From Candidatus Saccharimonadota bacterium (lineage in GTDB: Bacteria > Pseudomonadota > Gammaproteobacteria > Burkholderiales > Burkholderiaceae): 32,000 bases of DNA. This document shows, piece by piece, positions 2,934-28,207 of this stretch; the first letter of the stretch is position 1, and the number at the start of each line of letters is the position of its first letter. Under the pieces are notes generated by a model. It did not search any database. It worked only from the letters and a program-made list of their open reading frames with translations, and was not told the origin of the DNA. The stretch is from the NCBI RefSeq assembly GCF_964019745.1, contig NZ_OZ026462.1, positions 180,001-212,000 on the forward strand. Direction: 5' to 3'. The position numbers were made by a program, and so were the translations under genes.

Positions 2934-3797
2934 TTATTTTTTTTTAAAAGTTTTAATATTATTAATATTATTTATTTTGCCTTTTAATGTTAAAGGAAAA
3001 ATATTTTTATCTATTTTAGAATAATAGTGTATAGGTTCTTTAATACTTTTTTTTATTAATTTTTTATAAGAATTAAGATTTAAATTTGAATTTTTATTAT
3101 TTTTTTTAATATTATTAATCCAATTTTTAAATTTTTCTTTATTTACTCCTTTAAATTTAAATCTCATATCTGAAAAACCTTCTCCACTGTAATTTGAAGA
3201 AAATCCTTCAGAATTACTAATTTTATTAATTACAGCATGTAATTTAGTTTGCATATTAGGCATAGCATAAATTTGTCCTGCTAATGTTGGAATAAAAAAT
3301 GAATTCATATTAGAAAGAGAAGTTATTTTAAATTCTATAGGTTTATTAATAGGTATAACTAATTTATTTACTGAAGCTATTTTTTGTTTAGGATATATAA
3401 ATAGCCATTTCCAGTCTAAAGCTATTACATTTATTTTTAAATATTTAATATGATTAGAAATAAAATGATTTTTATCTATTCTAGAAAGTTTTTTATATGG
3501 ATCAAGTTTATGAGTATTTTTCCAAGAAAGTGTTCCTAAGATTAATATCATTATTAAAGGTACTCCCCAAATTATTAATTCTAATTTTATAGATTTATTC
3601 CAATTTGGTTTATATTCTGAATTTGAGTTATATCGATATTTCCAAGCAAAAAATAAACTAAGTATTATTACTGGAATCATTATTATTGATAATAATGATA
3701 TTGATATTAAAAATAATTTTGATTGTTGTATTGCTATATCCCCATTGGGATTTAATACTAAAAATTTTTTTTTATTTATAAAATTTGTATTTAACAT
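2934..3797 (-). CDS. cyoA: Cytochrome bo3 ubiquinol oxidase subunit II (CyoA)
   Basis: Matches E. coli CyoA at [47 protein letters not shown] and [12 protein letters not shown]. Its stop is 1 nt from the cyoB start, giving the operon order cyoA-B(C)-D. Confidence 0.92.
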
Positions 3798-6609: not shown

Positions 6610-9498
6610 TTATTTTTTATATAAATTATATGGATATTGTAAAAAACAAAATCCTAGTACTTTTTTTTCTTTTTTTATTATTTTTTTTATATCCCAAGTT
6701 ATTTTTTTTTTATAAGGAAAAAAATTTTTAAAATTTTTTTTATTTTCAAATAAATTTAATTGATTAATAAATTTTTTATTTTTTTCTGCATGAAGTATTA
6801 TTTTATTTATTGATGTATACATAATAGGTCTACTAATTTTAAAACAATCAAATGCTCCTGAAGTAATAAATGCTTTTAATGTTTTTTTATTTATATATAT
6901 TTTATTTATTCTTTCTATAAAATTTAAAAAATTTTTAAATATTCCTTTTTTTCTTTCATTAATTATATTTTTTATTATATTTTTTCCTAATCCTTTAATA
7001 GCACATAATCCAAAACTAATAGTATCTTTTTTTATTGGTTTGAAATTATGAAATGAAAAATTAATATTAGGTGGTAAAATTTTTATTTTACATGTATATA
7101 TTGAATCTTTAATTAAAATTTTTATTTTTTTTGTTTCATTCATAGCTAATGATAAATTAGCAGCCATAAAATATATAGTGTAATTTGTTTTTAAATATGC
7201 TGTATAATAACTTATTAATGCATAAGCCGTAGCATGTGCTTTATTAAATCCATATCCTGAAAATTTTTCTATTAAATTAAAAATTTTATTTGATTTTTTA
7301 ATAGATAATCCATTTTTTATTGCTCCTTTTATAAAAGTTTTTTTTTGTTTTAACATTTTTATTTTATTTTTACTACTCATTATTCTTTGTAAAAGATCTG
7401 CCTTTTTTAATGAATATCCTGCAATTATTTGAGCAATTTTCATAATTTGTTCTTGATAAATCATTATTCCATAAGTTTCTAATAAAATATTTTTTATTCT
7501 TTTATCTATAAAAGAGAAATTTTCTCCATGTTTTCTTTTGCAAAAAATTTCTATTAATTCTATTGGTCCTGGTCTATATAAAGATATTATGATAATAATA
7601 TCTTTAAATTTATCTGGTAATATATTTTTTAACATTTTTTGCATTCCTAAACTTTCTAATTGAAAAACAGCTATAGTTTTTGCTTGTGATAATAATTTAA
7701 AAGTTTTTTTATTATTTAAAGGAATATTATTTATACTTAATTTTTTTTTAATTTTAAATTGTTTTTTAATATTTGATAATGTTTTTTCAATTATTGTTAA
7801 AGTAGTTAAACCTAAAAAATCAAATTTAATTAATCCAATTTTTTTAATATCTTCTTTATCATATTGTGAAATAATTATTGAATTTTTTTCTTGAAAATAT
7901 AATGGACAAAAATTAGTTATTTTTTTAGGTGATATTATAATACCCCCAGCATGTGTACTAATATTTTTTATTATTCCTTCTAATTTTTGTGCAAAAAATA
8001 TTAATTTTTTAATTTCTTTATTACTTTCAATTTTTTTTTTAAAATTTTGTTCTTTTTTTATATATTCAGCAATAGTAAATAATTTATTTTGTTTGAAAGG
8101 TATTAATTTTACTAAATTATCACAAAAACTATAATTTAAACCTAAAATTCTCCCTACATCTCTTATAACTCCTCTAGCAGCCATTGTACCAAATGTTGCA
8201 ATTTGTACTACAGATTTTACCCCGTATTTATTTTTAATATATTTAATTACGATATCACGTTTTTTTTGACAAAAATCTATATCAAAATCAGGTATTGAAG
8301 TTCTTTCTTCGTTTAAAAATCTTTCAAATAATAAATTATATTTTATAGGATCTACATTAGTAATATTTAAAGAGAAAGCTACTAAAGAACTTGTACCTGA
8401 ACCTCTTCCTGGGCCAACGGGTATATTATTTTTTTTAGACCAATTAATAAAATCAGCAACTATTAAAAAATAATTAGAAAAATTCATTTTAATAATTGTA
8501 TTAATTTCATAATTTATTCTTTTAAAGTATTTTTTAATAGTTTCAATTTTATTTTTTTTTTTAGATAAAATTATTTTTAATTTTTTTTTTAAACCCTGTT
8601 TTGTTTTTATTTTAAAAAAAATATTATTTATAATATTTTTTTTTTTAAAAAATTTAGGTAATTTAACTTTTCCTAATTTAAATGAAAAATTACATTTTTT
8701 TGCTATTTCGATAGTATTTAATATAGCTTCTGGTATATCTTTAAATAATAAACACATTTCTTTTTTTGTTTTAAAATATTGTTCTTTAGTAAATTTTTTT
8801 TTTCTTTTTTTATCTTTTAATAATTTATTTTCAGATATACAAGTACGTATTTCATGTATTAAAAAATCTTTTTTTTTTTGAAATTGTATTGGTTGAGTTG
8901 CAACTATAGGAATATTTAATTTATTTGCAATTTCTAAAGATTTTAAAATTTGTAATTCCATATTTGGTTGTTTAATTCTTTGTATTTCTATATAAAAATT
9001 TTTTTTAAAAATTTTTTTCCAATTTTTTGCTTGTTGTTTAGCTTTTATAAAATTTCCATTGTTAATAGATTTTCCAATATTTCCTAAATGTGCTCCAGAT
9101 AAAATAATTAAATCATTATTATTTTTTTTAAAAATTTTTTTAATCCATTTAAATTTAATAATAGCTTTATTATTTTTAATATTTTTAATCCAAGCTTTAG
9201 ACAATAAATTACAAATATGTAAATATCCATTATAATTTTTAATTAAAAATAATAATCTTGATGATTTATTATTATTTTTATTTGATATTAATATATCACA
9301 ACCAATAATTGGTTTTATTCCTAGTTTTCTTGCTTTTTTATAAAATTTTATTGATCCAAAGATATTTAAAAAATCTGTTATAGCTATTGATGGTTGTTTA
9401 TCTTTTTTAACTTTTTCTAAAATTTTATTAATTTTTATTGTACTATCGTTAATTGAAAATTCTGTATGTAGTCTTAAATGTATAAAATTATTATTCAT
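6610..9498 (-). CDS. dnaE: DNA polymerase III alpha subunit (DnaE), C-terminally short (962 aa)
   Basis: The N-terminal PHP domain (FIHLRLHTEFSINDS), GPGRGSGTSSLVAFSLNITNVDP, PDFDIDF, FDFLGLTTLT, YRPGP and FNKAHATAYA are all present. A clamp-binding-like QLNLF motif sits near the end, and the protein stops at ...EKKVLGFCFLQYPYNLYKK. Confidence 0.95.
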   Translation of the reverse strand: MNNNFIHLRLHTEFSINDSTIKINKILEKVKKDKQPSIAITDFLNIFGSIKFYKKARKLGIKPIIGCDILISNKNNNKSSRLLFLIKNYNGYLHICNLLSKAWIKNIKNNKAIIKFKWIKKIFKKNNNDLIILSGAHLGNIGKSINNGNFIKAKQQAKNWKKIFKKNFYIEIQRIKQPNMELQILKSLEIANKLNIPIVATQPIQFQKKKDFLIHEIRTCISENKLLKDKKRKKKFTKEQYFKTKKEMCLLFKDIPEAILNTIEIAKKCNFSFKLGKVKLPKFFKKKNIINNIFFKIKTKQGLKKKLKIILSKKKNKIETIKKYFKRINYEINTIIKMNFSNYFLIVADFINWSKKNNIPVGPGRGSGTSSLVAFSLNITNVDPIKYNLLFERFLNEERTSIPDFDIDFCQKKRDIVIKYIKNKYGVKSVVQIATFGTMAARGVIRDVGRILGLNYSFCDNLVKLIPFKQNKLFTIAEYIKKEQNFKKKIESNKEIKKLIFFAQKLEGIIKNISTHAGGIIISPKKITNFCPLYFQEKNSIIISQYDKEDIKKIGLIKFDFLGLTTLTIIEKTLSNIKKQFKIKKKLSINNIPLNNKKTFKLLSQAKTIAVFQLESLGMQKMLKNILPDKFKDIIIIISLYRPGPIELIEIFCKRKHGENFSFIDKRIKNILLETYGIMIYQEQIMKIAQIIAGYSLKKADLLQRIMSSKNKIKMLKQKKTFIKGAIKNGLSIKKSNKIFNLIEKFSGYGFNKAHATAYALISYYTAYLKTNYTIYFMAANLSLAMNETKKIKILIKDSIYTCKIKILPPNINFSFHNFKPIKKDTISFGLCAIKGLGKNIIKNIINERKKGIFKNFLNFIERINKIYINKKTLKAFITSGAFDCFKISRPIMYTSINKIILHAEKNKKFINQLNLFENKKNFKNFFPYKKKITWDIKKIIKKEKKVLGFCFLQYPYNLYKK

Positions 9499-9685: not shown

Positions 9686-10816
9686 ATGGATTTAGTTTTT
9701 ATTAAGGAAGAATATTTTTCAGATCCATTGTTGTTAAAAAGCGGTTTAAAAATATTTAATTATAAGTTAGTATATGAAACTTATGGTAAATTAAATTTAG
9801 ATAAGTCTAATGTAATTTTAATTTGTCACGCTTTAAACGCATCTCATCATGTTACAGGAAAATATAAAAAAAATATAGAATATTCGGGGTGGTGGAATAA
9901 TATGGTTGGCCCTAATAAAACTATAAATACTAATATTTTTTTTATTATATGTATTAATAATATTGGTTCTTGTTTTGGTTCTACAGGACCTATGAATATT
10001 AATTTTAAAACTGGTTATTTATATGGTTCTAATTTTCCTATTCTTACTATAGAAGATTGGGTAAATTCGCAATTTTTTTTAATGAAAAAATTAAAAATTA
10101 AAAAAATTTTTAATGTTATTGGTGCTTCTTTAGGAGGTATGCAAGTTTTATGTTGGAATTTAATATATCCAAATTTTTCGAAAAATTATATAATAATAGC
10201 TTCTACTTTAAAATTATCTGCGCAAAATATTTCTTTTAATAGTATTACTCGTCAATCAATAAATTTTGATTATTATTTTTTTAATGGAGATTTTTATTAT
10301 TATGGTTTAATTCCTAAAAATAGTTTGTGTATATCACGTATGATTGCTCATAATACTTATATTTCTAGTTTTGATATGTCAAAAAAATTTAATCGTAAAT
10401 TACAATTTGAAAATGTTTGTTTTAATTTTGATATGGATTTTAAAGTTGAATCTTATTTATATTATCAAGGTGAAAAATTTTCTAATTATTTTGATACTAA
10501 TACTTATTTATTAATTACTAAGCTTTTAGATTATTTTGATATGGATAAAAAAATAAAGAAAAAAAATAAAAAAAAAAATTTTTTAATTATATCTTTTAAT
10601 ACTGATTGGAGATTTCCTTTAAAACATAATAAAAAAATAATAAATTTATTAATTAAAAGTAAAATGAATATTTATTTTATTAAAATAAATTCTTTATATG
10701 GGCATGATGCATTTTTAAAATATAATTATAATTATATGCAAGTAATAAATTTTTTTTTAAAAAGAAATTATAAAAATATTTTTTTAAAAAAATATAATAT
10801 ATATAATAATATATAA
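9686..10816 (+). CDS. metX: Homoserine O-acyltransferase (MetX family, alpha/beta hydrolase)
   Basis: Shows LICHALNASHHV...GWWNNMVGPNKTINTNIFFIICINNIGSCFGSTGP, a nucleophile-elbow-like GASLGGMQ, and a C-terminal GHDAFL. These are typical MetX signatures. Confidence 0.88.
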   Translation: MDLVFIKEEYFSDPLLLKSGLKIFNYKLVYETYGKLNLDKSNVILICHALNASHHVTGKYKKNIEYSGWWNNMVGPNKTINTNIFFIICINNIGSCFGSTGPMNINFKTGYLYGSNFPILTIEDWVNSQFFLMKKLKIKKIFNVIGASLGGMQVLCWNLIYPNFSKNYIIIASTLKLSAQNISFNSITRQSINFDYYFFNGDFYYYGLIPKNSLCISRMIAHNTYISSFDMSKKFNRKLQFENVCFNFDMDFKVESYLYYQGEKFSNYFDTNTYLLITKLLDYFDMDKKIKKKNKKKNFLIISFNTDWRFPLKHNKKIINLLIKSKMNIYFIKINSLYGHDAFLKYNYNYMQVINFFLKRNYKNIFLKKYNIYNNI

Positions 10817-10860
10817 TATAATATAATTTATATATAATATATATTTTATATAAAATATAT

Positions 10861-11436
10861 ATATAATATAAATTATATATAATATAAATTGTATATAATA
10901 TAAATTGTATATAATATAAATTATATATAATATAAATTATATATAATATAAATTATATATAATATAAATTATATATAATATAAATTATATATAATATAAA
11001 TTGTATATAATATAAATTGTATATAATATAAATTGTATATAATATAAATTGTATATAATATAAATTGTATATAATATAAATTGTATATAATATAAATTGT
11101 ATATAATATAAATTGTATATAATATAAATTATATATAATATAAATTATATATAATATAAATTATATATAATATAAATTATATATAATATAAATTATATAT
11201 AATATAAATTATATATAATATAAATTATATATAATATAAATTATATATAATATAAATTATATATAATATAAATTATATATAATATAAATTATATATAATA
11301 TAAATTATATATAATATAAATTATATATAATATAAATTATATATAATATAAATTATATATAATATAAATTATATATAATATAAATTATATATAATATAAA
11401 TTATATATAATATAAATTATATATAATATAAATTAT
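10861..11436. repeat. Tandem array of 36 copies of the 16-bp unit ATATAATATAAATTRT
   Basis: I read the array unit by unit, and each unit is perfect apart from one A/G position. The variant order is A x1, G x2, A x5, G x8, A x20. Degenerate related sequence extends left to the metX stop, and the array ends 50 bp before tRNA-Tyr. Confidence 0.97.
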
Positions 11437-11485
11437 ATAGTAAAATTTATTTTATAATATATAATAATATAAAATTTAAAATATT

Positions 11486-11569
11486 GGAGAGATGGCCGAG
11501 TGGTTAATGGCAGCAGACTGTAAATCTGCCCTTTTTATAAGTACGTTGGTTCGAATCCAGCTCTCTCCA
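11486..11569 (+). tRNA. tRNA-Tyr (anticodon GTA), type II with a long variable arm
   Basis: Manual cloverleaf: acceptor GGAGAGA/TCTCTCC plus A, anticodon stem GCAGA/TCTGC, loop CTGTAAA, T arm GTTGG-TTCGAAT-CCAGC. Confidence 0.93.
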
Positions 11570-11601
11570 TAAAATATATATAAATATATATTTTTATAAA
11601 A

Positions 11602-11672
11602 GCGGATATAGCTCAATGGTAGAGTAAAAGCCTTCCAAGCTTGAGATAAGGGTTCAATTCCCTTTATCCGCT
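11602..11672 (+). tRNA. tRNA-Gly (anticodon TCC)
   Basis: Manual cloverleaf: acceptor GCGGATA/TATCCGC, anticodon loop CTTCCAA, T arm AAGGG-TTCAATT-CCCTT. Confidence 0.92.
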
Positions 11673-11698
11673 TTTAAAAATATTAATTATTATAATTA

Positions 11699-11770
11699 GC
11701 CCTTGTAGCTTAGTGGTAGAGCACTCCCTTAGTAAGGGAGAGGTCAAATGTTCAATTCATTTCTAGGGCA
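11699..11770 (+). tRNA. tRNA-Thr with the unusual anticodon AGT
   Basis: Manual cloverleaf: acceptor GCCCTTG/CTAGGGC (one T-T mismatch), D arm GCTT-AGTGGTA-GAGC, anticodon stem CTCCC/GGGAG, 7-nt loop TTAGTAA, giving anticodon AGT. Confidence 0.88.
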
Positions 11771-11822
11771 AAAATTTAAAAATAATTTATATAATAAATA
11801 TTATATATTTTTTTATTTTAAG

Positions 11823-11895
11823 AGGGGGATAGTTCAAATGGTAGAGCATCGGTCTCCAAAACCGAAAGTTGGGGGTTCAATCCCCTCTCCCCCTG
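11823..11895 (+). tRNA. tRNA-Trp (anticodon CCA)
   Basis: Manual cloverleaf: acceptor AGGGGGA/TCCCCCT plus G, anticodon stem TCGGT/ACCGA, loop CTCCAAA, T loop TTCAATC. The CCA anticodon argues for UGA as stop. Confidence 0.92.
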
Positions 11896-11930
11896 TGATA
11901 AAAAAAAATATATTTTTTATATATTAATAT

Positions 11931-11985
11931 AATATAATATAATACAACATAATACAACATAATACAACATAATACAACATAATAC
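11931..11985. repeat. 10-bp tandem repeat AATACAACAT: 4 perfect copies plus degenerate flanking copies
   Basis: Positions 11941-11980 read aatacaacat x4. They are preceded by aatataatat and followed by the partial copy aatac. Confidence 0.9.
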
Positions 11986-12038
11986 GGGATTGTATAACAT
12001 ATATATAATATAATATAATATTATATAATATAATGTAA

Positions 12039-12540
12039 TACAATATAAATAATAGTATTAGTACTAATATTAGTAATAATATTAGTAATAATGTTAATAA
12101 CAATATTATTGATAATATTATTAATGTTATTATTAATAATATTAATAACAGTTTTATTAAAAATATTATTAATTTTTTTAATAGTAAAATTAATAACAAA
12201 ACCATTAATAATACTACTAATAATTTTACTAATAATATTAATACCAATTATATTATTAATAATATGAGTAATAATATGAGTACTATTATTAATAATAATA
12301 TTTATAATAGTATTAACAATATAACTAATAATCATATCGGATATAACATTACTAATAATATCAATACTAATATTAGTAATAATATCAATGATAATATTAT
12401 TAATGTCGATAATTTTATAATAGTTATGATACTAGTTTTTAATATTAATAATAATAATATTATTAATATTATTTCTAGTATTATTAATAATAATAATTAT
12501 AATTATAATTATAATTATAATTATAATAATAATAATAATA
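12039..12540. repeat. Decayed trinucleotide (AAT/ATT)n tract of about 500 bp, ending in (AATTAT)x5 at 12495-12524 and a pure (AAT)n run
   Basis: Read in the frame starting at 12039, the tract is almost entirely aat/att/agt/act/ata/gtt-type codons and has no stop for about 169 codons. The low-complexity track ORFs on both strands overlap it. Confidence 0.8.
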
Positions 12541-12585
12541 TTTAATATTAATATTAATATTTAATATTAATATTTAATATTAATA
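12541..12585. repeat. 13-bp repeat TTTAATATTAATA x3, with an extra TTAATA after the first copy
   Basis: Copies start at 12541, 12560 and 12573, read directly from the sequence. Confidence 0.85.
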
Positions 12586-12687
12586 ATTAACATTAACATT
12601 AACATTAACATTAACATTAACATTAACATTAACATTAACATTAACATTAACATTAACATTAATATTAACATTAATATTAACATTAAT
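12586..12687. repeat. Hexanucleotide microsatellite: (ATTAAC)x12, then alternating ATTAAT/ATTAAC, 17 units in total
   Basis: Read directly: 12 perfect attaac units from 12586 to 12657, then attaat, attaac, attaat, attaac, attaat. Confidence 0.95.
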
Positions 12688-12790
12688 AATTAATAATTAA
12701 TAATTAATAATTAATAATTAATAATTAATAATTAATAATTAATAATTAATAATTAATAATTAATAATTAATAATTAATAATTAATAATTA
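12688..12790. repeat. Heptanucleotide microsatellite (AATTAAT), 14 copies plus a partial copy, ending 17 bp before the secE start
   Basis: Read directly: perfect 7-nt phase from 12688 to 12785, and the last unit degenerates to aattaaa. Confidence 0.95.
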
Positions 12791-12807
12791 AAAAATAAAA
12801 ATTATAT

Positions 12808-12996
12808 ATGAAATATATTATTTTTTTTTTTAATTTTTTAAAAAAATCTTTTAAAGAATTTAAAAAAATTATTTGGCCTACTTTTTTTGAAGTAATTGAA
12901 GTTATTATTGTAGTTATTTTATTTTGTATTTTTATGTTTTTTTTTTTTATTTATTCAGATAAATTAATTAAAAATATATTGTGTAATATATATTAA
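12808..12996 (+). CDS. secE: Preprotein translocase subunit SecE (minimal single-TM form, 62 aa)
   Basis: The sequence FKEFKKIIWPTFFEVIEVIIVVILFCIFMFFFF matches the conserved SecE core (E..KV.WP.r.E followed by a TM helix). Its position immediately upstream of rplK is the canonical one. Confidence 0.75.
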   Translation: MKYIIFFFNFLKKSFKEFKKIIWPTFFEVIEVIIVVILFCIFMFFFFIYSDKLIKNILCNIY

Positions 12997-13144
12997 TATG
13001 TTATCATATAATTTAATTATATGAAATATTTTATATTTTTTTAAAAAATAAAATATTAAAAATGTTTATTTTTTAAATTATTAAAAATATAATTTATTAA
13101 AATTATTTTTTTTATATTATATATATTTTAAATTATTTTATTAA

Positions 13145-13570
13145 ATGAAAAAAATTATAGGTTTTATTAAATTACAAATTTTAGCTGGAAAAGCTACTCC
13201 TGCACCTCCTATAGGTCCAGCTTTAGGACAAAGAGGTTTAAATATTATGGAGTTTTGTAAAAATTTTAATAATCAAACTAAAAATTTGGAATCGGATTTA
13301 CCTATACCTGTTGTAATAACTGTTTTTTTTGATAAATCTTTTGATTTTATTTTAAAAACTCCTCCTACATCGGTATTGATAAAAAAAATTTTAGGCATTG
13401 ATAAAGGTTCATCAAAGCCAAATTTAAATAAAGTAGGAACTATTTCTATGAAACAAATAGAAGAGATTGCTCTTAAAAAAAGAAAAAATCTTACTTCAAA
13501 TAATTTATCAGGAGCTATTCGTACTATTATTGGTTCTGCTATTTCTATGGGAGTTTTAGTAAAAAATTAA
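13145..13570 (+). CDS. rplK: 50S ribosomal protein L11
   Basis: Shows [34 protein letters not shown] and [20 protein letters not shown], which are clear L11 signatures. Confidence 0.97.
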
Positions 13571-13601
13571 TAAATTTTTAATTAATAATTTTAAAATTTT
13601 T

Positions 13602-14288
13602 ATGTTAAAAATTTCTAAAAAAAGAAAAGAAATTCTAAAAAAAATAAATAATAAAAAAAAGTATCTATTAGAAGAAGCTTTTGTTTTAATAAAAAAATGT
13701 TCTATAGCAAAATTTAATGAATCTGTTGACATTTCTATTCATTTAGGTATAGATTATAAAAGATCTGATCAAATTGTTCGTGGTTTTGTTATTTTTCCTT
13801 TTAATTTTAAAAAGTCTGTTAAAGTTTTAGTTTTTGCTAAAGATGAAGAAAGAAAAAGTGCTTTAGAAGCTGGTGCTGATTTTGTTGGTATGGAAGATTT
13901 AATAAAAAAAATTAAATTAAAAGGAATTTTTTTTGATGTAGTTGTTACTTCGCCTAAAAATATGTTAATTTTAAATTCTTTAGGAAAAATTTTAGGACCT
14001 CGTGGATTAATGCCAAATAAAAAAAGTGGTACATTATCTTCTGATATTTTTAATACTGTTAAAAATATTAAATTAGGACAAGTTAATTATAAAAGTGATA
14101 AATTTGGTATTATTAATTTATCAATTGGTAAAAGTAATTTTAAAATTTCAAGTTTAAAATCTAATTTTTTTTCATTATTAAATTCTTTAAAAAAAAATAA
14201 ACCTATTTCTTTGAAAAATATTTATTTTCGTAATATTTGGGTATCTTCTACTATGGGTATAGGTGTTAAAATTAATCAACAGTTTTAA
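13602..14288 (+). CDS. rplA: 50S ribosomal protein L1
   Basis: Shows FNESVDISIHLGIDYKRSDQIVRG, ALEAGADFVG and LGPRGLMPNKKSGT. Its position after rplK fits. Confidence 0.95.
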   Translation: MLKISKKRKEILKKINNKKKYLLEEAFVLIKKCSIAKFNESVDISIHLGIDYKRSDQIVRGFVIFPFNFKKSVKVLVFAKDEERKSALEAGADFVGMEDLIKKIKLKGIFFDVVVTSPKNMLILNSLGKILGPRGLMPNKKSGTLSSDIFNTVKNIKLGQVNYKSDKFGIINLSIGKSNFKISSLKSNFFSLLNSLKKNKPISLKNIYFRNIWVSSTMGIGVKINQQF

Positions 14289-14341
14289 TTATTAAATTTT
14301 TTTAATAATATTTATAATTAATAATTTATATTTATATTTTT

Positions 14342-14346
14342 GGAGG
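14342..14346 (+). promoter_or_regulatory. Shine-Dalgarno-like GGAGG, 4 nt upstream of the rplJ TTG start
   Basis: The sequence reads tggaggtatt|ttg. It is the only strong SD-like motif I could find in front of any CDS in this window. Confidence 0.45.
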
Positions 14347-14350
14347 TATT

Positions 14351-14836
14351 TTGAATTTTAATATTGATAAAAAAAAAAAAATTGTATCTAAAATTATAGA
14401 AAAAATTAATATTTTTAATGTTATTATTTTAGCTAAATTTAAAAAAATAAGTACTAATCAATTAACTGATTTAAGAGTAATTTTTAAAAAAAAAAAAATT
14501 TTTATATCTGTATTTAAAAATAGCTTATTAAAAAAAGCTTTAATAAAAAGTAAATTTGAAAAAATAATTTCAAAAATTAATGGTCAAATAATTTGTTTTT
14601 TTTCTAATGATGTAATTTTATTATCTAAAGTAATTATTGATTTTTTAAAAATTAATAAAAATTTAATTGTTAAAATAGGAAGTTTTTTTGAAAAAAAAAT
14701 TTTTTTATTAGATATAAAAAATTTTGCAAATATCCCTAGTAAAAATGTGTTATTAATGCAATTATTTAAAATTTTTAGGTATTCTATAATTAATTTTATA
14801 AAAATTTTATTTTTTATAAAAAATAAAAAAAAATAA
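14351..14836 (+). CDS. rplJ: 50S ribosomal protein L10 (divergent)
   Basis: MNFNIDKKKKIVSKIIEKI...LTDLRVIFKKKKIFISVFKNSLLKKAL parallels E. coli L10 (MALNLQDKQAIVAEV...[27 protein letters not shown]). It sits between rplA and rplL and starts with TTG. Confidence 0.85.
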   Translation: MNFNIDKKKKIVSKIIEKINIFNVIILAKFKKISTNQLTDLRVIFKKKKIFISVFKNSLLKKALIKSKFEKIISKINGQIICFFSNDVILLSKVIIDFLKINKNLIVKIGSFFEKKIFLLDIKNFANIPSKNVLLMQLFKIFRYSIINFIKILFFIKNKKK

Positions 14837-15047
14837 TTATTATAAAAATTTTATTTAAATTATTATTAATTATTTTTTTTATTTGTTTTTTATTAAATAT
14901 ATTTTATATAAATATAAAAATAATTTTATATATATAAAATATGTATATATATTTATGTTTTTATAAGGTATTTATTTTTAACAATAGAGAAATTTAAAAA
15001 CAATTTTAAATTGTTATTTAAATTTTAATATATTTTTTAAAAATTTA

Positions 15048-15434
15048 ATGATTAAAAAATTAACAAAAGATGAGATTATTAAAGTAATTAATAATTTAAG
15101 TGTTTTAGAGTTAAATGATTTAATTAAAGGTTTTGAAAAAAAATTAGGTATATCAGTTAATGATATTAATAATATTAATACTTTGAATAAAAATATAAAT
15201 AATATTTCTAAAAAAAAAGAAAAAACAAAATTTTCAGTAATTTTAACTGAAATAGGTACTAGTAAAATTAGTGTGATTAAAATTGTTAGAGAACTTACTG
15301 GTTTAGGATTAAAAGAATGTAAAAATTTAGTTGATAATATACCTAAATCTTTAAAAGATAATTTAACTAAAGTAGAAGCAGAGACTTTTATAAAAAAAAT
15401 AGAATCTATTGGAGCTAAAGCTTTAATAAAATAA
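15048..15434 (+). CDS. rplL: 50S ribosomal protein L7/L12
   Basis: Has an N-terminal dimerisation-helix-like segment, and the C-terminal domain reads KISVIKIVRELTGLGLKECKNLVDNIPKSLKDNLTKVEAETFIKKIESIGAKA. Confidence 0.93.
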   Translation: MIKKLTKDEIIKVINNLSVLELNDLIKGFEKKLGISVNDINNINTLNKNINNISKKKEKTKFSVILTEIGTSKISVIKIVRELTGLGLKECKNLVDNIPKSLKDNLTKVEAETFIKKIESIGAKALIK

Positions 15435-15494: not shown

Positions 15495-18400
15495 ATGATT
15501 ACTAAATATATTGATTCTTTTATTAAGAAAAAAAGTATTCGTAAATCTTTTACAAATAGAAATAAGGTGTTTAAAACTTTAAATTTATTAGAAATACAAC
15601 TTAAATCTTATGAAAAATTTTTGCAAAAAGATATTTTTTTTTTAAAAAGAAAAAATTATGGTTTACAATTTATCTTTAAAACTTTTTTTCCTGTTGCTTC
15701 TAAAGATAATTCTTATAATATAGAATATTTATATTATTTTTTAGAAAAACCTATTTTTAATATTAAAGAATGTAAAGAACGTGGCTTAACATATTCTTCT
15801 GTTTTAAAAGTTATGTTTCGTTTAAATATTTTTTATAAAGGTTTTTTAGAAACAAAAGTTATAAAAGAAATTAAAGAACAAGAAATTTTTATGGGCGAAA
15901 TACCTTTAATGACAAATTTTGGAACATTTATTATTAATGGTACAGAACGTACTGTTGTTTCTCAATTATATAAATCACCTGGAGTTTTTTTTGATTATAA
16001 TAAAAAAAAATTTTTTTCTGATGAAAAAATCTTTTATAACGCTAAGATAGTACCTTATAAAGGTTCTTGGTTAGAATTTGAATTTGATTCTAAAGATATA
16101 TTATTTTTTCGTATTGATAGACGAGCAAAAATGCCAGTTACAATTTTATTAAAAGCTATGGGTATGACTGTTGAAAAAATTTTATATTCTTTTTCTTTAT
16201 ATGATAAATTTTTAATTTTAAAAAATTTTGTTAGAATTAAAATTATTGTTAATCGTTTATTAGGAAAAAAAATTAATTTTAATCTTTTTAAAGAGAATGG
16301 AAAACTTTTAATAAAAAAAAATGAGATAATTACTTTAAAAAAATTACGAATAGATTCAAAAACTGAATATTGTATTTTTTTAGTTAAAATAAAATATTTA
16401 TTGGGGCGTGTTTTAAAAGAAAATATTATTAGTAATATTGATAAAAAAATAGTAATTGCTTATGCAAATGAAACAATTACAAAAGATTTGTTGTTTATGT
16501 TTATAAAACATAAAATTAAAGTTGTAAAAATTATTTATAGTAGTAATATTAATTATATTGATTATATTTCAAAAATTTTAAATTTTGATAAAACTTTAGA
16601 TTCATTTTCTGCAAAAAAATTTATTTATAAAATTATGCGCCCTGGTGATTCTCCAACTATTGATACTGTAGAAATTTTTTTTAAAAATTTATTTTTTAAT
16701 AAAAAACGTTATAATTTATCTTTAATAGGTCGTATGAAATTAAATAGTAGATTTGGTTTTGATAGTTCTTATGGAACTTCTCTTTTATCTATTAAGGATA
16801 TAATATATGTTATTAAAACTTTAATTAATCTTAAAAATAATATTGGTAGTATAGATGATATTGATCATTTAGGTAATAGAAGAATTAGAAGTGTTGGAGA
16901 ATTATTAGAAAATCAATTAAAATTTGCTTTTAATAAAACTGAAAAATTTATTAAAGAGCGTTTAAATTATGTTGAACAAGATAATTTAATGCCTCATGAT
17001 TTTATAAATTCTAAAACAATTTCTACAATTATAAGGGATTTTTTTTGTACTTCACAATTATCTCAATTTTTAGATCAAACAAAAACAATTTCTACAATTA
17101 TAAGGGATTTTTTTTGTACTTCACAATTATCTCAATTTTTAGATCAAACAAATTCTTTATCTGAAATTACACATAAACGTCGTATTTCATCTTTAGGACC
17201 TGGAGGATTAACAAGAGAAAGAGCAGGTTTTGAAGTTAGAGATGTACATTATACTCACTATGGGCGTGTTTGTCCAATAGAAACTCCGGAGGGTCCTAAT
17301 ATAGGATTGATAAACTCTCTAGCTTTGTTTTCAAAATTAGATAAATATGGTTTTTTAGAGACACCTTACTATAAGGTTGTAAATAAAAAAGTTACTTCTG
17401 AAATTAAATATCTTAATGCGTTTAATGAAGCTTTTTATACTATAGCACAAGCTAATTCTATTATTAATAATAAAAAAGAATTAATAGGTCCTTTAGTTTC
17501 TGCTAGAAAATTAGGTAATAATATTTTTGTTTCTCCTGAAAAAATTGATTTTATAGATGTTTCTCCTAATCAAATAGTATCATTAGCAGCATCTTTAATA
17601 CCTTTTTTAGAACATGATGATGCGAATAGAGCTTTAATGGGTGCTAATATGCAACGTCAAGCTGTTCCCTGTATGAAAGCACAAAGGCCTTTAGTAGGTA
17701 CTGGTTTAGAAAAAATTGTAATTTCAAATTCTGGAGATGTAATAAGATCTTTAAGAGGTGGTAAAATAATTTTTGTAGATTCTAATAAAATTGTTATAAG
17801 TGTTAATGAAGATGAAATTATGAGTAATGATTTAGGAATTGATGTTTATAATTTAGTTAAATATTCAAGAACTAATCAAGATACTAATGTTAATCAAAAA
17901 ATTATTGTTAATGTTGGAGATTTAGTATTAAAAAATGATGTTATAGCTGATTGTTCTTCAAGTCATTTAGGTGAATTATCTTTGGGGCAAAATATACTTG
18001 TGGCTTTTATGTCTTGGAATGGTTATAATTTTGAAGATTCTATTATAATTTCTAAAAAGATTGTTGTTGAAGAAGTGTATACCTCTATACATGTTAAAGA
18101 ATTTGTAGTTTTAATTCGTGATACTAAATTAGGATTTGAAAAAAATACTAGAAAAGTTCCAAATCTACCTAAAAAACAAAAATTTAAATTAGATGATTCT
18201 GGTATTATTCATCTTGGTGCGGAAGTAGTATCTGGTGATGTATTAGTAGGAAAAATTACACCTAAAAATGATATTCAAATTACTCCTGAAGAAAAATTAA
18301 TTTGTGCTATTTTTAAAGAAAAAATTTCTAATTTTAAAGATACTTCTTTTAGAGTACCACCTCAAATATGTGGTACAGTTATTAATGTAGAAATTTTTAC

Positions 18401-19682
18401 TAAGAAAGGTATTATTAAAGATGAACGTTCTATACAAATTATAAAAGATAAATTAGAAAAATACAAATTAAATTTAATGGAAAAAATATTTTTTATTGAA
18501 AATGATTTGTTACAAAGATTAAAAAAAAAATTAATAAATAAATTTATGTATATTAATTTAGATGTTAAAAATAAAATTAAAATTACAAAAAAATTTTTAT
18601 TAAATTTAAAACTTTTAGATTTATTTGAAATTAATTTAGAAGATAAAAATTTAAAAAAATTTTTAAAAAGAATTAAAAAATTATTTTTTTTAAAACAAGT
18701 TTATTTTCAAGATAAGTATATTAAAAAAAAAAAAAAATTAACAGAAGGTGATGAATTACCTTCTGGAGTATTAAAAATAATTAAAATTTTTTTAGCTATT
18801 AAAAAAAAATTACAACCAGGTGATAAGATGTCTGGTAGACATGGAAATAAAGGTGTAGTTTCTTGTATTTTAAATATTGAAGATATGCCTTATATGTCTG
18901 ATGGTACTGTAGTTGATATTATTTTAAATCCTTTAGGTATTCCATCTAGAATGAATGTTGGGCAAATTTTGGAAGCGCATTTAGGTTGGGCTGCTAAGGG
19001 TTTAGGTTTACGTTTACAAAAAATGATAAATTCTCAAAAAAATTTATTAGAAATACGAAAATTTTTAGAAAAAATTTATAATTTTTCTTATAAAAAAGAG
19101 AATTTTAATAATTTTAATGACAATGAAATTTTAGAATTAATAAAAAATATTAGTAATGGTGTTTATTTTTCTACTCCTGTTTTTGATGGAGCTACTGAAA
19201 AAGATATAGATTATTTATTAAATTTAGCTTATCCTAAAAATATTTCTAAAAAATTAAAAATTAATGAAAAAAAAAATCAAATTATTTTATATGATGGTAG
19301 AACAGGAGAGGCTTTTAAACAATTTATAACTGTTGGTTATATTTATTTTTTAAAATTAAATCATTTAGTAAATGATAAAATTCATTCTAGATCAATTGGT
19401 CCTTATTCTTTAATAACTCAACAGCCTTTAGGTGGTAAATCTCAATTTGGTGGTCAACGTTTTGGAGAAATGGAAGTTTGGGCTTTAGAAGCTTATGGTG
19501 CTTCTTATACATTGCAGGAGATGTTAACTATTAAATCTGATGATATTAATGGTCGTACTGAAATTTATAAAAATTTAATAAATAATATTGGTATAATTAA
19601 TATTAATATACCCGAATCTTTTAATGTTTTAATTAGAGAGATTCGTTCTTTAGGAATTGATATAAAATTAAAATATAAATAA
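15495..19682 (+). CDS. rpoB: DNA-directed RNA polymerase beta subunit (1395 aa), carrying an internal 23-aa tandem duplication
   Basis: Collinear with E. coli RpoB: [94 protein letters not shown] and [18 protein letters not shown]. Confidence 0.98.
   Translation: [1395 protein letters not shown]
17013..17150 (+). repeat. Perfect 69-bp direct tandem duplication (x2) inside rpoB
   Basis: Positions 17013-17081 and 17082-17150 are identical at 69/69 positions in a base-by-base comparison. The protein reads [23 protein letters not shown] twice. Two further nt (aa) of homology follow, at 17151-17152. Confidence 0.97.
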
Positions 19683-19718: not shown

Positions 19719-22700
19719 ATGAAACTTATAACTAATTTTTTAAAGTTTGTTAGATATAAAAATCAATTTAATTCAATAAAAATAAAATTAGCTTCTGATA
19801 AAAAAATTAGATCTTGGTCTTATGGAGAAGTAAAAAAATCTGAGACTATAAATTATAGAACATTTAGACCTGAAAAAAGTGGTTTATTTTGTTCTAAAAT
19901 TTTTGGACCTGTTAAAAATTATGAATGTTTATGCGGAAAATATAAACGTGTAAAATATTGTGGTGTTATTTGTGAAAAATGTGGTGTAGAAGTAACATTA
20001 ACTAATGTTAGAAGAGAAAGAATGGGACATATTACCTTAGCTGCTCCTGTAGCACATATTTGGTTTTTAAAGTCCTTACCGTCTAGATTAAGTATAATTT
20101 TAAATATGAATTTAAAAGATATAGAAAAAGTTTTGTATTTTGAAAAATATGTTATTATTAATCCTGGTAAATCTTTTTTAAAAAAAAAACAAGTTATATC
20201 AGAAAATGTTTATATTCAAAATAAAGAAAGATATAAAAAAGATTTTTTAGCTTTAATGGGAGCTGAAGGAATACAAAAATTATTATCTTCTATAAATATT
20301 AAAAAAAATATTAAGAATTTAAAAAAATCTTTAAAGAATTTAAAATCTAATTCAAAAGTTAAAAAACTTTTAAGACGTTTAAAAATTTTTGAAGCTTTAA
20401 AAAAATCTAATATGAAACCACAATGGATTATAATGAAAATATTACCTGTATTACCATCTGAATTACGACCGTTAGTTTTATTAGAAGGTGGTAGATTTGC
20501 AACTTCTGATTTAAATGATTTGTATCGTAGAATTATTAATAGAAATAATAGATTGAAAAAATTAATAAATTTAAAAGCACCAGAAATTATTTTAAAAAAT
20601 GAAAAACGTATGTTACAAGAAGCAGTTGATGCTCTTTTTGATAATGGTAGGTCTGGAAAAGTAATTTTAGGTTCTAATAAACGTCCTTTAAAATCTTTAT
20701 CAGAAATGATAAAAGGTAAAACTGGAAGATTTAGACAAAATTTATTAGGAAAACGTGTTGATTATTCTGGAAGATCTGTAATAATTGTAGGACCTGAGTT
20801 AGATTTACATCAATGTGGTTTACCTAGACTTATGGCTTTAGAATTATTTAAGCCATTTATTTTACAAAGACTTAATATTCTTGATATAACTACAGATTTA
20901 CAATTTTCAAAAAAATTAATTGATTCTCAAGATCCAATAATTTTAGAAATTTTAGAGGATATTATAAAAGAACATCCTGTAATATTAAATAGAGCTCCAA
21001 CTTTACATCGTTTAGGTATACAAGCTTTTAAAGCTGTTCTTATAGAAGGAAAAGCTATAAAATTACATCCATTAGTTTGTGCTGCTTTTAATGCTGATTT
21101 TGATGGTGATCAAATGGCAGTTCATATTCCTTTATCTATTGAAGCGCAAAGTGAAGCATTATCTTTAATGATGTCTGATAAAAATATTTTATTTCCTTCT
21201 AATGGAGAGCCTTCAATAACTCCTACTCAAGATATTATTTTAGGTTTATATTATGCTACTCAAAAATTTAAAAATATTGAAGATGAAAAAATAATATTTA
21301 GTGATGTACATGAAGTTATTGTAGCTTATAATAATAAAGTAGTTGATTTATTTACTAATATAATTTTAAGAGTTTATGAAAAAGAAAATTATAAAGATAA
21401 AAAAAATTTATCTTATGTTTATAGAAGATATAGTACTACAGTAGGTAGAGTGATGTTATATGAAATATTTCCAAAAAATTTATCTTTTTCTTTAATTAAT
21501 AAAATAATTAATAAAAAAAAAATTTCTAAAATAATTAGTATTATATTTTTTAAAAATGGAATAAAAAAAACAGTATCATTTGTTAATAAGTTAACTCAAT
21601 ATGGTTTTAAAATGGCTACTATTTCCGGTATGTCTATTTCTATAAATGATATGAAAATTCCTAAAGAAAAAAATAATATTATATCAATATCTAAAAAAAA
21701 AATTAATAAAATAAATAAACAATATTCTTTAGATTTAATAACTAAAAAAGAACGTTATAATAAAATAATAGATATATGGAGTAAAACTACTGAAAATGTA
21801 AGTAAAATTATGATATATGAAATGGAAAAAACATATAAAAAAAATAGTTATAAAAAAAATTTTCTTAAAAAAGATTTAAATCCTATTTATATTATGATTA
21901 ATTCTGGAGCTAGAGGTTCTTCTATACAAATTCGTCAATTAGCAGGTATGAGAGGATTAATGTCTAAACCAGATAATTCAATTATTGAAACTCCTATTAT
22001 ATCTAATTTTAGAGAAGGGTTAGATGTATTACAATATTTTATTTCTACTCATGGAGCTCGTAAAGGTTTATCTGATACTGCATTAAAAACTGCTAATTCT
22101 GGATATTTAACTAGACGTTTAGTTGATGTTACTCAAGATTTAATAATTTTAAAATATGATTGTTTTACAAAAAAAGGAATAAAATTAAAATCTTTAATAG
22201 AAAATGGAAAAGTTATTGAATCTTTAAAAGAAAGAATTTTAGGTCGTGTTTCTTTAGAAGATATTGTTGATTATGAAACAAAAGAAATTATATGTAATGC
22301 TGGTACATTAATAGATGAAGATATTATTGAAAAAATTAATTTTTTAAAAATTAATTCAATAAAAGTTCGTAGTCCATTAAAATGTAAAATTCGTTATGGT
22401 TTATGTGTTAAATGTTATGGTCGTGATTTGAGTAAAGGTGTTTTAGTTAATGTTGGTGAGGCTGTTGGGATAATAGCTGCTCAATCTATAGGAGAGCCTG
22501 GTACACAGTTGACTATGCGTACATTTCATATAGGTGGTGCAACTTCTAGAGTTATTGTAGATTCTTTTATAAAAACTAAAGTTAGTGGAAAAATTTTATT
22601 TTCTTCTTCTATGCGTTGTATTTTAAATAGTAAAAATAACTTAATTGTTATTTCTCGTTTTGGTAAAATTTTTATTTTAGATAAATTTAAAAATAAAATA

Positions 22701-23897
22701 GAACAATATAAAATTCCATATGGTGCAATTTTATTAATAAATAATAATGATTTAGTAAAAATTGGAGAAAAATTAGCTTTTTGGGATTCTTTAGCACGTC
22801 CAATAATTGCTGAAAATTCTGGTTTTATAAAATTTAAAAATTTTTTTAAAAATTTAACTGTTGAAAAAAAATTTGATTCTTTAATTAAATCAAATATTTA
22901 TTTAGTAATAGGTTCAAAGAAAATTAATAAAAAAAAACATTTTGAAATTTTAAGGCCTCAAATAAATATTTTAAATGAATTTAAAAATTGTGAGGAAAAA
23001 AAAGATGTAAATAAATTTACAACAATTAATTTTTTAATTGGTACTAAAATTATAGTTAAAAATAAACAATTTGTAAAAGTTGGTGATGTTATAGCATATA
23101 TTCCTGTAAATGTAAAAAAAACTTTAGATATTACTGGAGGCTTACCAAAGGTTGCAGAATTATTCGAAGCTAGAATTTCAAAAAATTCTGCTATTTTAGC
23201 AGAGATTACAGGTAATATTTTTTTTGATAAAGATATAAAAAATAAACAATCTTTAAATATTATAAGTTCTGATGGTATAAAACATAATTTTTTAGTTTCT
23301 AAAAATAAACAGATTTTAGTTCATGATGGACAATTTATAAATAAAGGAGAAATTATAGTAGAAGGCCCAATTAATCCTCAAGATATTTTAAGATTATTAG
23401 GTATTAATAAATTAATAAAATATATTGTTAATGAAGTACAAATAATTTATCGTTCTCAAGGTGTAAAAATTAATGAAAAACATATTGAGATTATTATTAA
23501 ACAAATGTTGCGTAAAGTAGAAATAATTTCTCCAGGAGATACAGATTATATTGTAGGTGAACAAGTAGAAAAATATGAATTATTAAATATTAATGATAAT
23601 ATTATTTTAAAGAATAAACTTCCTGCAACTTATATTCCTGTTTTATTAGGTATAACAAAAGCTTCTTTATCAACTGACTCTTTTATTTCTGCTGCATCTT
23701 TTCAAGAAACTACAAGAATTTTAACAGAAGCTGCAATTTTAGGAAAAGAAGATAATTTACGAGGGTTAAAAGAAAATGTAATAGTTGGTAGATTAGTTCC
23801 TGCAGGAACTGGTTTTATTTTTCATAAATTTAAAGAAAAAATTTTTAAAAAAAAATCATTGTTTAAGAAATATTTTAAATATTTTTTAAATAATTAA
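19719..23897 (+). CDS. rpoC: DNA-directed RNA polymerase beta' subunit
   Basis: Has the zinc-finger region CLCGKYKRVKYCGVICEKCGVEV, NRAPTLHRLGIQAF, the catalytic NADFDGDQMAVH, and GLPKVAELFEAR. Confidence 0.98.
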   Translation: MKLITNFLKFVRYKNQFNSIKIKLASDKKIRSWSYGEVKKSETINYRTFRPEKSGLFCSKIFGPVKNYECLCGKYKRVKYCGVICEKCGVEVTLTNVRRERMGHITLAAPVAHIWFLKSLPSRLSIILNMNLKDIEKVLYFEKYVIINPGKSFLKKKQVISENVYIQNKERYKKDFLALMGAEGIQKLLSSINIKKNIKNLKKSLKNLKSNSKVKKLLRRLKIFEALKKSNMKPQWIIMKILPVLPSELRPLVLLEGGRFATSDLNDLYRRIINRNNRLKKLINLKAPEIILKNEKRMLQEAVDALFDNGRSGKVILGSNKRPLKSLSEMIKGKTGRFRQNLLGKRVDYSGRSVIIVGPELDLHQCGLPRLMALELFKPFILQRLNILDITTDLQFSKKLIDSQDPIILEILEDIIKEHPVILNRAPTLHRLGIQAFKAVLIEGKAIKLHPLVCAAFNADFDGDQMAVHIPLSIEAQSEALSLMMSDKNILFPSNGEPSITPTQDIILGLYYATQKFKNIEDEKIIFSDVHEVIVAYNNKVVDLFTNIILRVYEKENYKDKKNLSYVYRRYSTTVGRVMLYEIFPKNLSFSLINKIINKKKISKIISIIFFKNGIKKTVSFVNKLTQYGFKMATISGMSISINDMKIPKEKNNIISISKKKINKINKQYSLDLITKKERYNKIIDIWSKTTENVSKIMIYEMEKTYKKNSYKKNFLKKDLNPIYIMINSGARGSSIQIRQLAGMRGLMSKPDNSIIETPIISNFREGLDVLQYFISTHGARKGLSDTALKTANSGYLTRRLVDVTQDLIILKYDCFTKKGIKLKSLIENGKVIESLKERILGRVSLEDIVDYETKEIICNAGTLIDEDIIEKINFLKINSIKVRSPLKCKIRYGLCVKCYGRDLSKGVLVNVGEAVGIIAAQSIGEPGTQLTMRTFHIGGATSRVIVDSFIKTKVSGKILFSSSMRCILNSKNNLIVISRFGKIFILDKFKNKIEQYKIPYGAILLINNNDLVKIGEKLAFWDSLARPIIAENSGFIKFKNFFKNLTVEKKFDSLIKSNIYLVIGSKKINKKKHFEILRPQINILNEFKNCEEKKDVNKFTTINFLIGTKIIVKNKQFVKVGDVIAYIPVNVKKTLDITGGLPKVAELFEARISKNSAILAEITGNIFFDKDIKNKQSLNIISSDGIKHNFLVSKNKQILVHDGQFINKGEIIVEGPINPQDILRLLGINKLIKYIVNEVQIIYRSQGVKINEKHIEIIIKQMLRKVEIISPGDTDYIVGEQVEKYELLNINDNIILKNKLPATYIPVLLGITKASLSTDSFISAASFQETTRILTEAAILGKEDNLRGLKENVIVGRLVPAGTGFIFHKFKEKIFKKKSLFKKYFKYFLNN

Positions 23898-27046: not shown

Positions 27047-28207
27047 AAAAATTAAAAAAATAATTTTTTATATAATTTTAAAAAAATATTAGAATTTTTA
27101 ATTTTTTAAATTTTATATATTAAATATATTATTATTTTTTTATATAAAATATTATTTATATTATAAAAAAATTTAATTATATTAATTTTTTAAAAATTTT
27201 AATAGATAGAAAAAAAATTTTATATTTTAAATTATATTTTGAATATCATATTTAAATATGATTATTATTAATAATAATTTAAATTTTAAAAAAATTATTT
27301 TTTTATTATTAATATAATAATAATAAATTTTTATTATTTTTAAAAAATTTTTAAAAAAATATAATAAATATTATTTATATTATTAATATTAAAAATATAT
27401 TTTTTTTATATTTTATAATAAAAATAAATATATAAAAATATTATTTGAATTTATAATTGTTTAATTTAAAAAATTTAAAATAATTATTTTTTTAAAATAT
27501 TTAAATAAAAAATAATATTTTTAATATTTTTAATAAAAATATATTTAATTTATATTATAATAATATTATATATTTTAATATAAAATAAAATTATATAAAT
27601 ATTTTTAATAATTTTTTATAATATTTTTATTAATAAAAATTTTTTAGAAGTTTTAAAAAAATTTTAAAATTAATAAAATATTATTTATTAATAATATATT
27701 AATTTTTAATAAAAAAATATTAAAATTAATTATAATATAATTAATATATTTTTAAAATTTATAATAATTTTTATTTTTAAAAATTTTTTTAATTTTAAAT
27801 TTTTTTTAATAAATTGTTAATTTATAAATAATTTTTAAATATTTTATTTATATAAAAAAAATAATAACATGTATTAAATATATATGTTATAATTTATATA
27901 TATAATATATATTGTATAAGTTATATTTAATTATAAATTAGATTAATTATATTTAAAATAAAAATTATTTTAATATTAATTTATTAAATTTAGTTTTAAT
28001 TTTAAATATTGTTTTTATAAATAATATAAAATAAATTATTAATTTTAAAATTAATTGTATTTTTTAATTAAAAAAAAATAATAAAAAATAAAAAATTGTA
28101 AATTTTGTAAATAAATTTAAAATTTTTATAATATTTATAAATATTTAAAATTATTATTAATTTTTTATTTATTTAAATATATTTTTTTTTAAAAAAAAAA
28201 TATTTTT
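27047..28207. other. Non-coding spacer of 1161 bp, almost pure A+T, between tyrS and aroC
   Basis: The track shows no ORF and there is no structured-RNA-like GC island. By hand count there are about 22 G and 2 C in about 1160 nt. Confidence 0.75.

Follow-up and report, generated by a model that had tools for sequence, protein, structure and literature searches.

Can a bacterial RNA polymerase tolerate a second copy of 23 residues in rifampicin (Rif) cluster I of its beta subunit, and how would such a copy arise? The question is raised by rpoB in a 32,000-nucleotide stretch of contig NZ_OZ026462.1 (hereafter the window, whose own numbering is used throughout), which comes from a betaproteobacterial symbiont of the alder spittlebug Aphrophora alni, named as a Candidatus Zinderia endosymbiont, and in which a 69-bp unit within the gene stands twice in tandem. 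Our favoured reading, to which we give a probability of roughly 0.55, is that this is a real and evolutionarily young in-frame slippage duplication in the single rpoB of a drift-dominated symbiont, and that it is tolerated or mildly harmful.

The duplication and the gene that carries it

Positions 17013-17081 and 17082-17150 are the same at 69/69 bases by string comparison and lie head to tail, the start-to-start spacing of 69 leaving no spacer between two copies of a 69-nt unit. Past the unit, identity continues for 2 nt on the right flank (AA, 17151-17152, forward strand, which is common to the unit start and the right flank) and for 0 nt on the left, and Tandem Repeats Finder accordingly reports 17013-17152 with period 69, 2.0 copies, 100% matches and a score of 280. 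The junction reads GATCAAACA to the end of copy 1 and AAAACAATTTC from the start of copy 2; its k-mer is GATCAAACAAAAACAATTTCTAC, and those of the flanks are ATAAATTCTAAAACAATTTC and GATCAAACAAATTCTTTATC.

The repeat is real and chance is excluded as its source. With a per-site match probability of 0.332, taken from the base composition of rpoB, the probability of a 69/69 match is ~9e-34 per position and offset, and the longest same-offset run in rpoB is 71 nt, against 11-17 nt in 20 shuffles of the gene. It is also the only exact direct repeat of at least 25 bp in the window once the AT-microsatellite arrays (10798-12800) are set aside.

The unit lies in frame within an intact open reading frame (ORF) on the forward strand (15495-19682, 1395 amino acids, ending in TAA) and adds 23 residues to its product. 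In translation DFINS is followed by the 23-residue unit (copy 1, residues 507-529), by the same unit again (copy 2, residues 530-552) and then by single-copy sequence. The product scores 1575.5 bits against TIGR02013, the RpoB equivalog model, whose cutoff is 801.15, and the profile match is split in two at residue 530, the site of the duplication. All six of the RNA polymerase beta Pfam domains are present (PF04563, PF04561, PF04565, PF10385, PF00562 and PF04560), and 55% identity with a 1368-amino-acid Oxalobacteraceae RpoB extends over 99% of the protein. A pseudogene was considered and is ruled out by the intact frame together with a score so far above the RpoB cutoff.

The protein is 100% identical to RefSeq WP_339044831.1, of the Candidatus Zinderia endosymbiont of Aphrophora alni, whose 90% cluster has a single member, so that the records show no other rpoB product nearly identical to it. 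Upstream lie rplK, rplA, rplJ and rplL (13145-15434, forward strand), whose products all score above the cutoffs of the NCBIfam equivalogs for L11, L1, L10 and L7/L12; downstream is an intact rpoC (19719-23897, forward strand; beta' subunit of 1392 amino acids; TIGR02386 at 1670 bits, cutoff 963). The canonical rplKAJL-rpoB-rpoC context is thus present. A first-pass annotation, made from the letters of this DNA, had called the gene rpoB and the duplication perfect, in frame and flanked by only 2 nt of microhomology, and all of this was borne out by the profile matches and operon context, the string comparisons and the translation.

Place in the Rif pocket and rarity

When the protein was compared with Protein Data Bank (PDB) chains by phmmer, copy 1 aligned up to position 517 of E. 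coli-type beta and copy 2 restarted at 496, which places the unit at beta 496-518. The rifampicin hot-spot comprises codons 507-533 in E. coli numbering, or 81 bp (PMC2652454). The unit begins 11 residues upstream of this cluster and covers its first 12 residues, including Q510-Q517, and the rest of the cluster (E. coli 519-533) follows in single copy at 17151-17195 on the forward strand, as translation and the PDB alignment agree. Because the duplicated range includes them, Q513, F514 and D516, which we take from Rif-RNA polymerase structures to be Rif-contact residues of beta, are present twice. In a MAFFT alignment with 54 homologues, copy 1 was treated as an insert and left unaligned, and copy 2 stood in register with E. 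coli beta 496-518, the invariant columns picking up again at K530, I532 and S533 and continuing to T552. The length change falls within codons 507-533; with identical copies, any position from 495/496 to 518/519 serves equally well as the insertion point.

The segment also differs from its relatives in sequence. In free-living relatives prolines adjoin the unit boundaries (SK-P-ISAA and DQTN-P-LSE in the homologue consensus), and over residues 507-567 (17013-17195) both of these bracketing prolines have been replaced, KP by KT and NP by NS. Within the Rif pocket the substitutions G507C, S508T and M515L are found (E. coli numbering). Both copies carry these changes, and the proline losses and the three substitutions thus predate the duplication. 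The bracketing prolines of the free-living relatives point to a helix-loop-helix unit with loops at its boundaries, whose ends might lie near each other.

Rarity was assessed from the spacing between the conserved flanking motifs GNRR and (T)HKRR and from the number of cluster-I motif copies. Among 239 fetched RpoB homologues, the 231 with both flanking motifs had a spacing of 76 (223 sequences) or 77 (eight), and the cluster-I motif occurred once in 239/239. Two DNA-pattern scans yielded 230 rpoB loci, 142 of them evaluable, with spacings of 75-79 and one cluster-I motif each; one was a scan of a genome collection with the permissive pattern CARTTRWSNCARTTYWTRGAYCARACNAAY, whose listed matches were spread over unrelated phyla and served solely as background. 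The symbiont RpoB has a spacing of 99 and two motif copies. More than three extra residues between GNRR and (T)HKRR, or a second cluster-I motif, were therefore seen in 0/381 other RpoB sequences. The placement at 496-518, overlapping the start of 507-533, and the exceptional character of an insertion at this site had both been proposed in the first-pass annotation and both hold.

Wider searches returned no second case. Among 1.84 billion cluster representatives, searched with copy 2 plus 27 downstream residues so that a duplicated RpoB would be expected first and with two stretches, no two-stretch RpoB was found in the best 150 of 1,629 matches, a weak negative given that these are 50% representatives only and that the symbiont RpoB is absent from them. 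A 261-amino-acid query around the duplication found nothing above 62% identity, and this too is weak as the symbiont protein itself was missed. A query from the variable region 225-420 of RpoB gave no matches in an index that handles low-complexity protein badly, which makes this negative a weak one as well. The exact core of the unit had 0 matches in the metagenome collection, and an AT-codon pattern found 110 metagenomic loci, close relatives making up 0 of them. No Zinderia relative was among the matches listed for the permissive genome-collection pattern, look-ups found no contig carrying the exact rpoB, rpoC, rplL or rplK product (a weak negative), and literature searches for larger rpoB duplications returned nothing relevant.

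Two groups of known length variants in beta invite comparison. Small in-frame indels in cluster I were reportedly described by Jin and Gross in 1988 and are said to be listed in clinical Mycobacterium tuberculosis catalogues. The likeness to these alleles of E. coli and M. tuberculosis lies in the same segment of the same protein, an in-frame change of length and viable bacteria; they involve one to a few codons and are drug-selected, whereas the symbiont duplication comprises 23 codons, well beyond their small size, in an uncultured organism with no known drug exposure. A 23-residue self-duplication in Rif cluster I is a larger form of the in-frame length changes known there. The other group consists of the lineage-specific beta insertions (SI1, SI2 and the BEAN domains), which occupy five sites in uD2 (N- and C-terminal halves), uD3, uD4 and uD5 and which are independently folded, ancient and clade-wide, a 50-residue limit having been used (PMC11515920). 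Their example shows that a working beta can accommodate large additions. E. coli beta 450-577 forms the universal domain uD1 (Table 1, PMC11515920). As residues 496-518 lie in uD1 and the five known sites lie elsewhere, the symbiont duplication is not among the known beta insertions; it differs from them also in being 23 residues long (<50), a copy of its neighbour and found in one genome only.

Origin, age and rival explanations

The duplication would stem from slippage during replication, or from a template switch, over an interval of 69 nt with only 2 nt of microhomology, in an extremely AT-rich genome that is full of tandem arrays and subject to strong drift. We infer such an origin from the anatomy of the locus, that is, head-to-tail copies, no spacer, copy identity and the 2-nt microhomology. 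Slippage tandem duplications of AT-rich, repair-poor genomes likewise consist of identical copies set head to tail without a spacer and with microhomology at the breakpoint. The symbiont replicon clearly slips often, given the many tandem arrays in the window. Those other arrays are low-complexity, non-coding and multi-copy, whereas the rpoB duplication consists of two copies of unique coding sequence in a highly constrained region of an essential gene. In such a gene, an in-frame length is what would be expected to survive.

Two further sequence features at the breakpoints were examined and rejected. The 7-nt AAATTCT occurs immediately before copy 1 and again across the end of copy 2; as a slipped repeat it would imply an ancestral spacing of 75 nt, not 69. 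The breakpoints also have inverted repeats nearby, which are weak (AT-rich, with 70-81% complementarity) and were set aside as mechanistic evidence.

As to age, 0 differences in 69 sites place the divergence of the copies below ~4.2% at 95%. Measured against the 45% by which the protein differs from its closest sequenced relatives, the event is young. The first-pass annotation had taken zero divergence to mean a very recent slippage event, a polymorphism or an assembly artefact; youth relative to the divergence of the lineage stands, and the stronger wording goes beyond what the bound requires, as the event need be neither 'very recent' nor confined to this host individual.

To the protein the duplication adds a second beta 496-518, the segment that runs into the Rif pocket and makes up its N-terminal half. 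Identical copies would give the chain a choice of 24 registers in which to occupy the canonical site, with one composite copy in the normal place and the surplus 23 residues looping out wherever this is least costly. The enzyme would still work, and the change would be neutral to mildly deleterious and not adaptive. With rpoB otherwise intact, as are rpoC and the genes around it, and with no second rpoB product of this lineage on record, the simplest reading is that the duplicated allele supplies the beta subunit of the cell and is tolerated; on this reading the allele would be fixed within the host and the enzyme functional. From the sequence, rifampicin resistance is plausible, since Rif-contact residues are duplicated.

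Several points weigh against this account. Two nucleotides of microhomology is very little for classical slippage, and by chance alone a third of all lengths are multiples of three. Few parts of RpoB are as conserved as this segment, and with 0/381 sequences carrying even four extra residues there, a 23-residue insert could be harmful. Structure prediction lent no support to tolerance of the insert, both AlphaFold2 models being too poor to use: the model of residues 1-1200, built with 54 homologues, had a mean predicted local distance difference test (pLDDT) score of 37.5 and a predicted template modelling (pTM) score of 0.26, and that of a 261-amino-acid fragment, with 137 homologues, had a pLDDT of 51.2 with the duplicated region below 50. 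Lastly, the evidence comes from one 336,619-bp contig in one assembly from one insect, and no second assembly, relative or read set was found.

The same extreme conservation makes a fully functional insert of this size a priori unlikely, and it speaks for heteroplasmy, in which the duplicated allele, possibly defective, would coexist with a single-copy allele that supplies the working beta subunit, the assembler having written the duplicated path. Symbionts of this kind are polyploid, with many genome copies per cell, and perfect tandem repeats generally revert easily by slippage, so that a mixture would be expected; zero divergence between the copies also fits a young, unswept variant. Set against this, the assembly and protein records give no sign of a second allele, the 90% protein cluster has its one member, and assemblers normally write the majority path. 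We regard heteroplasmy as unlikely, if deserving of serious consideration. An assembly or consensus artefact over a truly single-copy genome would explain perfect copy identity equally well, and it draws some weight from the single assembly, of which neither the product look-ups nor the metagenome scan gave an independent copy. The host genome was obtained from one male A. alni from Beinn Eighe, Scotland, by PacBio HiFi sequencing on Revio and hifiasm assembly, in a report that leaves the symbiont unmentioned (PMC11579584). The symbiont contig presumably derives from the same HiFi reads, which would span the 138-bp structure many times over. HiFi reads run to many kilobases, and because single reads of that length cross a 138-bp structure, a collapse or expansion error is unlikely if the contig was indeed built from them. 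Tandem doubling of a unique 69-mer is, moreover, not a typical HiFi or hifiasm error as far as is generally known, the repeat is the only one of its kind in 32 kb, and an artefact would have had a one in three chance of an in-frame length. An artefact thus seems to us distinctly improbable.

Still less credence is due to an adaptive remodelling of the Rif pocket or the RNA path, in which an extra helix-loop-helix would offset lost transcription factors or guard against a rifamycin-like compound. Changes in cluster I can alter elongation and termination, and, as circumstantial support, nusG is missing from its usual place: the interval from the tRNA cluster to rplK, where tuf, secE and nusG are usually found, has an AT-rich array only. 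Archaeal and eukaryotic subunits of the Rpb2 type have a longer fork loop 1, close to where the RNA-DNA hybrid ends upstream. In the PDB alignments (query 10-180 against 329-489 and 15-179 against 392-544, with the 23 duplicated residues subtracted), archaeal and Pol II second-largest subunits are 11-13 residues longer than bacterial beta over a wider region; these extra residues are not duplications, and the likeness is a lead only. The identical copies, for their part, argue that there has been no refinement since the duplication, the searches gave no sister sequence that would show conservation, there is no known source of antibiotic pressure in the bacteriome, and drift is the simpler account. 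We therefore consider adaptation very improbable and retain a tolerated or mildly harmful slippage duplication as the favoured reading.

The rest of the window and the meaning of the duplication

The remainder of the window bears on the affinities of the symbiont. There is no trace in it of the recoding of UGA to tryptophan: its 16 genes (8,767 codons) contain 71 TGG and 0 in-frame TGA, all stops are TAA, and the anticodon stem of tRNA-Trp(CCA) (11823-11895) has the normal 5 bp. In Zinderia insecticola, by contrast, 360/374 tryptophan codons are UGA (PMC2953269), and its tRNA-Trp has a 4-bp anticodon stem and is proposed to read UGA (PMC13092985). The symbiont contig, at 336,619 bp, is also larger than the Z. 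insecticola genome of 208,564 bp. Together, the absence of recoding and the difference in size suggest that recoding is younger than the split of the host lineages, or that the name of the symbiont overstates its kinship with Z. insecticola.

Tandem arrays may account for the excess size. At 10798-11484 (687 bp) a 16-bp unit, TATATATAATATAAAT, is repeated in 43 copies at 94% identity, beginning within the last codons of metX (9686-10816) and ending exactly at the start of tRNA-Tyr (11485), a minisatellite whose length is unusual in so small a symbiont genome. The gap at 11896-13144 between the tRNA cluster (Tyr-Gly-Thr-Trp) and rplK is taken up by a degenerate ATATTA/24-bp tandem array of ~0.8 kb (11925-12791). 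In proteobacteria this is presumably the normal place of tuf, secE and nusG, which seem to have been lost from the locus with repeat DNA in their stead, and three ORFs listed at 11924-12545 are probably spurious. The 1.16-kb tyrS-aroC spacer (27047-28207) contains nested AT-rich tandem repeats with periods of 25-142, the arrays lying at 27333-27751.

Two other loci depart from the usual gene structure. On the reverse strand, an 874-amino-acid ORF (308-2932) matches CyoB over residues 12-662 and CyoC over residues 696-873, that is, subunits I and III of cytochrome o ubiquinol oxidase, and is an apparent cyoB-cyoC gene fusion, with cyoA directly upstream (2934-3797). The reverse-strand dnaE (6610-9498) encodes 962 amino acids matching profile positions 3-962 of 1146, and thus lacks the C-terminal ~180 residues; it ends 6 nt from a convergent uvrD/rep-like helicase gene (4631-6604).

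What the rpoB duplication means depends on its state in the population. On the boldest reading, which we judge rather unlikely, it is fixed and the polymerase works with it; this would be the first natural insertion within uD1 at the Rif pocket, a self-copied helix-loop-helix that probably extends the loop by the upstream edge of the RNA-DNA hybrid and renders the enzyme intrinsically rifamycin-insensitive. Given fixation and function, the wall of the Rif pocket, a near-invariant stretch at which a first-line class of antibiotics is aimed, would be seen to absorb a 23-residue insertion, the known space of viable resistance-type alleles would be wider, and the symbiont would offer a natural test case for tandem self-duplication as a change that lets a protein choose where its insert is placed. 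Such a feature in a single assembly calls for a check at the level of the reads. If the allele is instead heteroplasmic or defective, it would provide a snapshot of a degenerating symbiont in which polyploidy and drift shield a deleterious allele of an essential gene.

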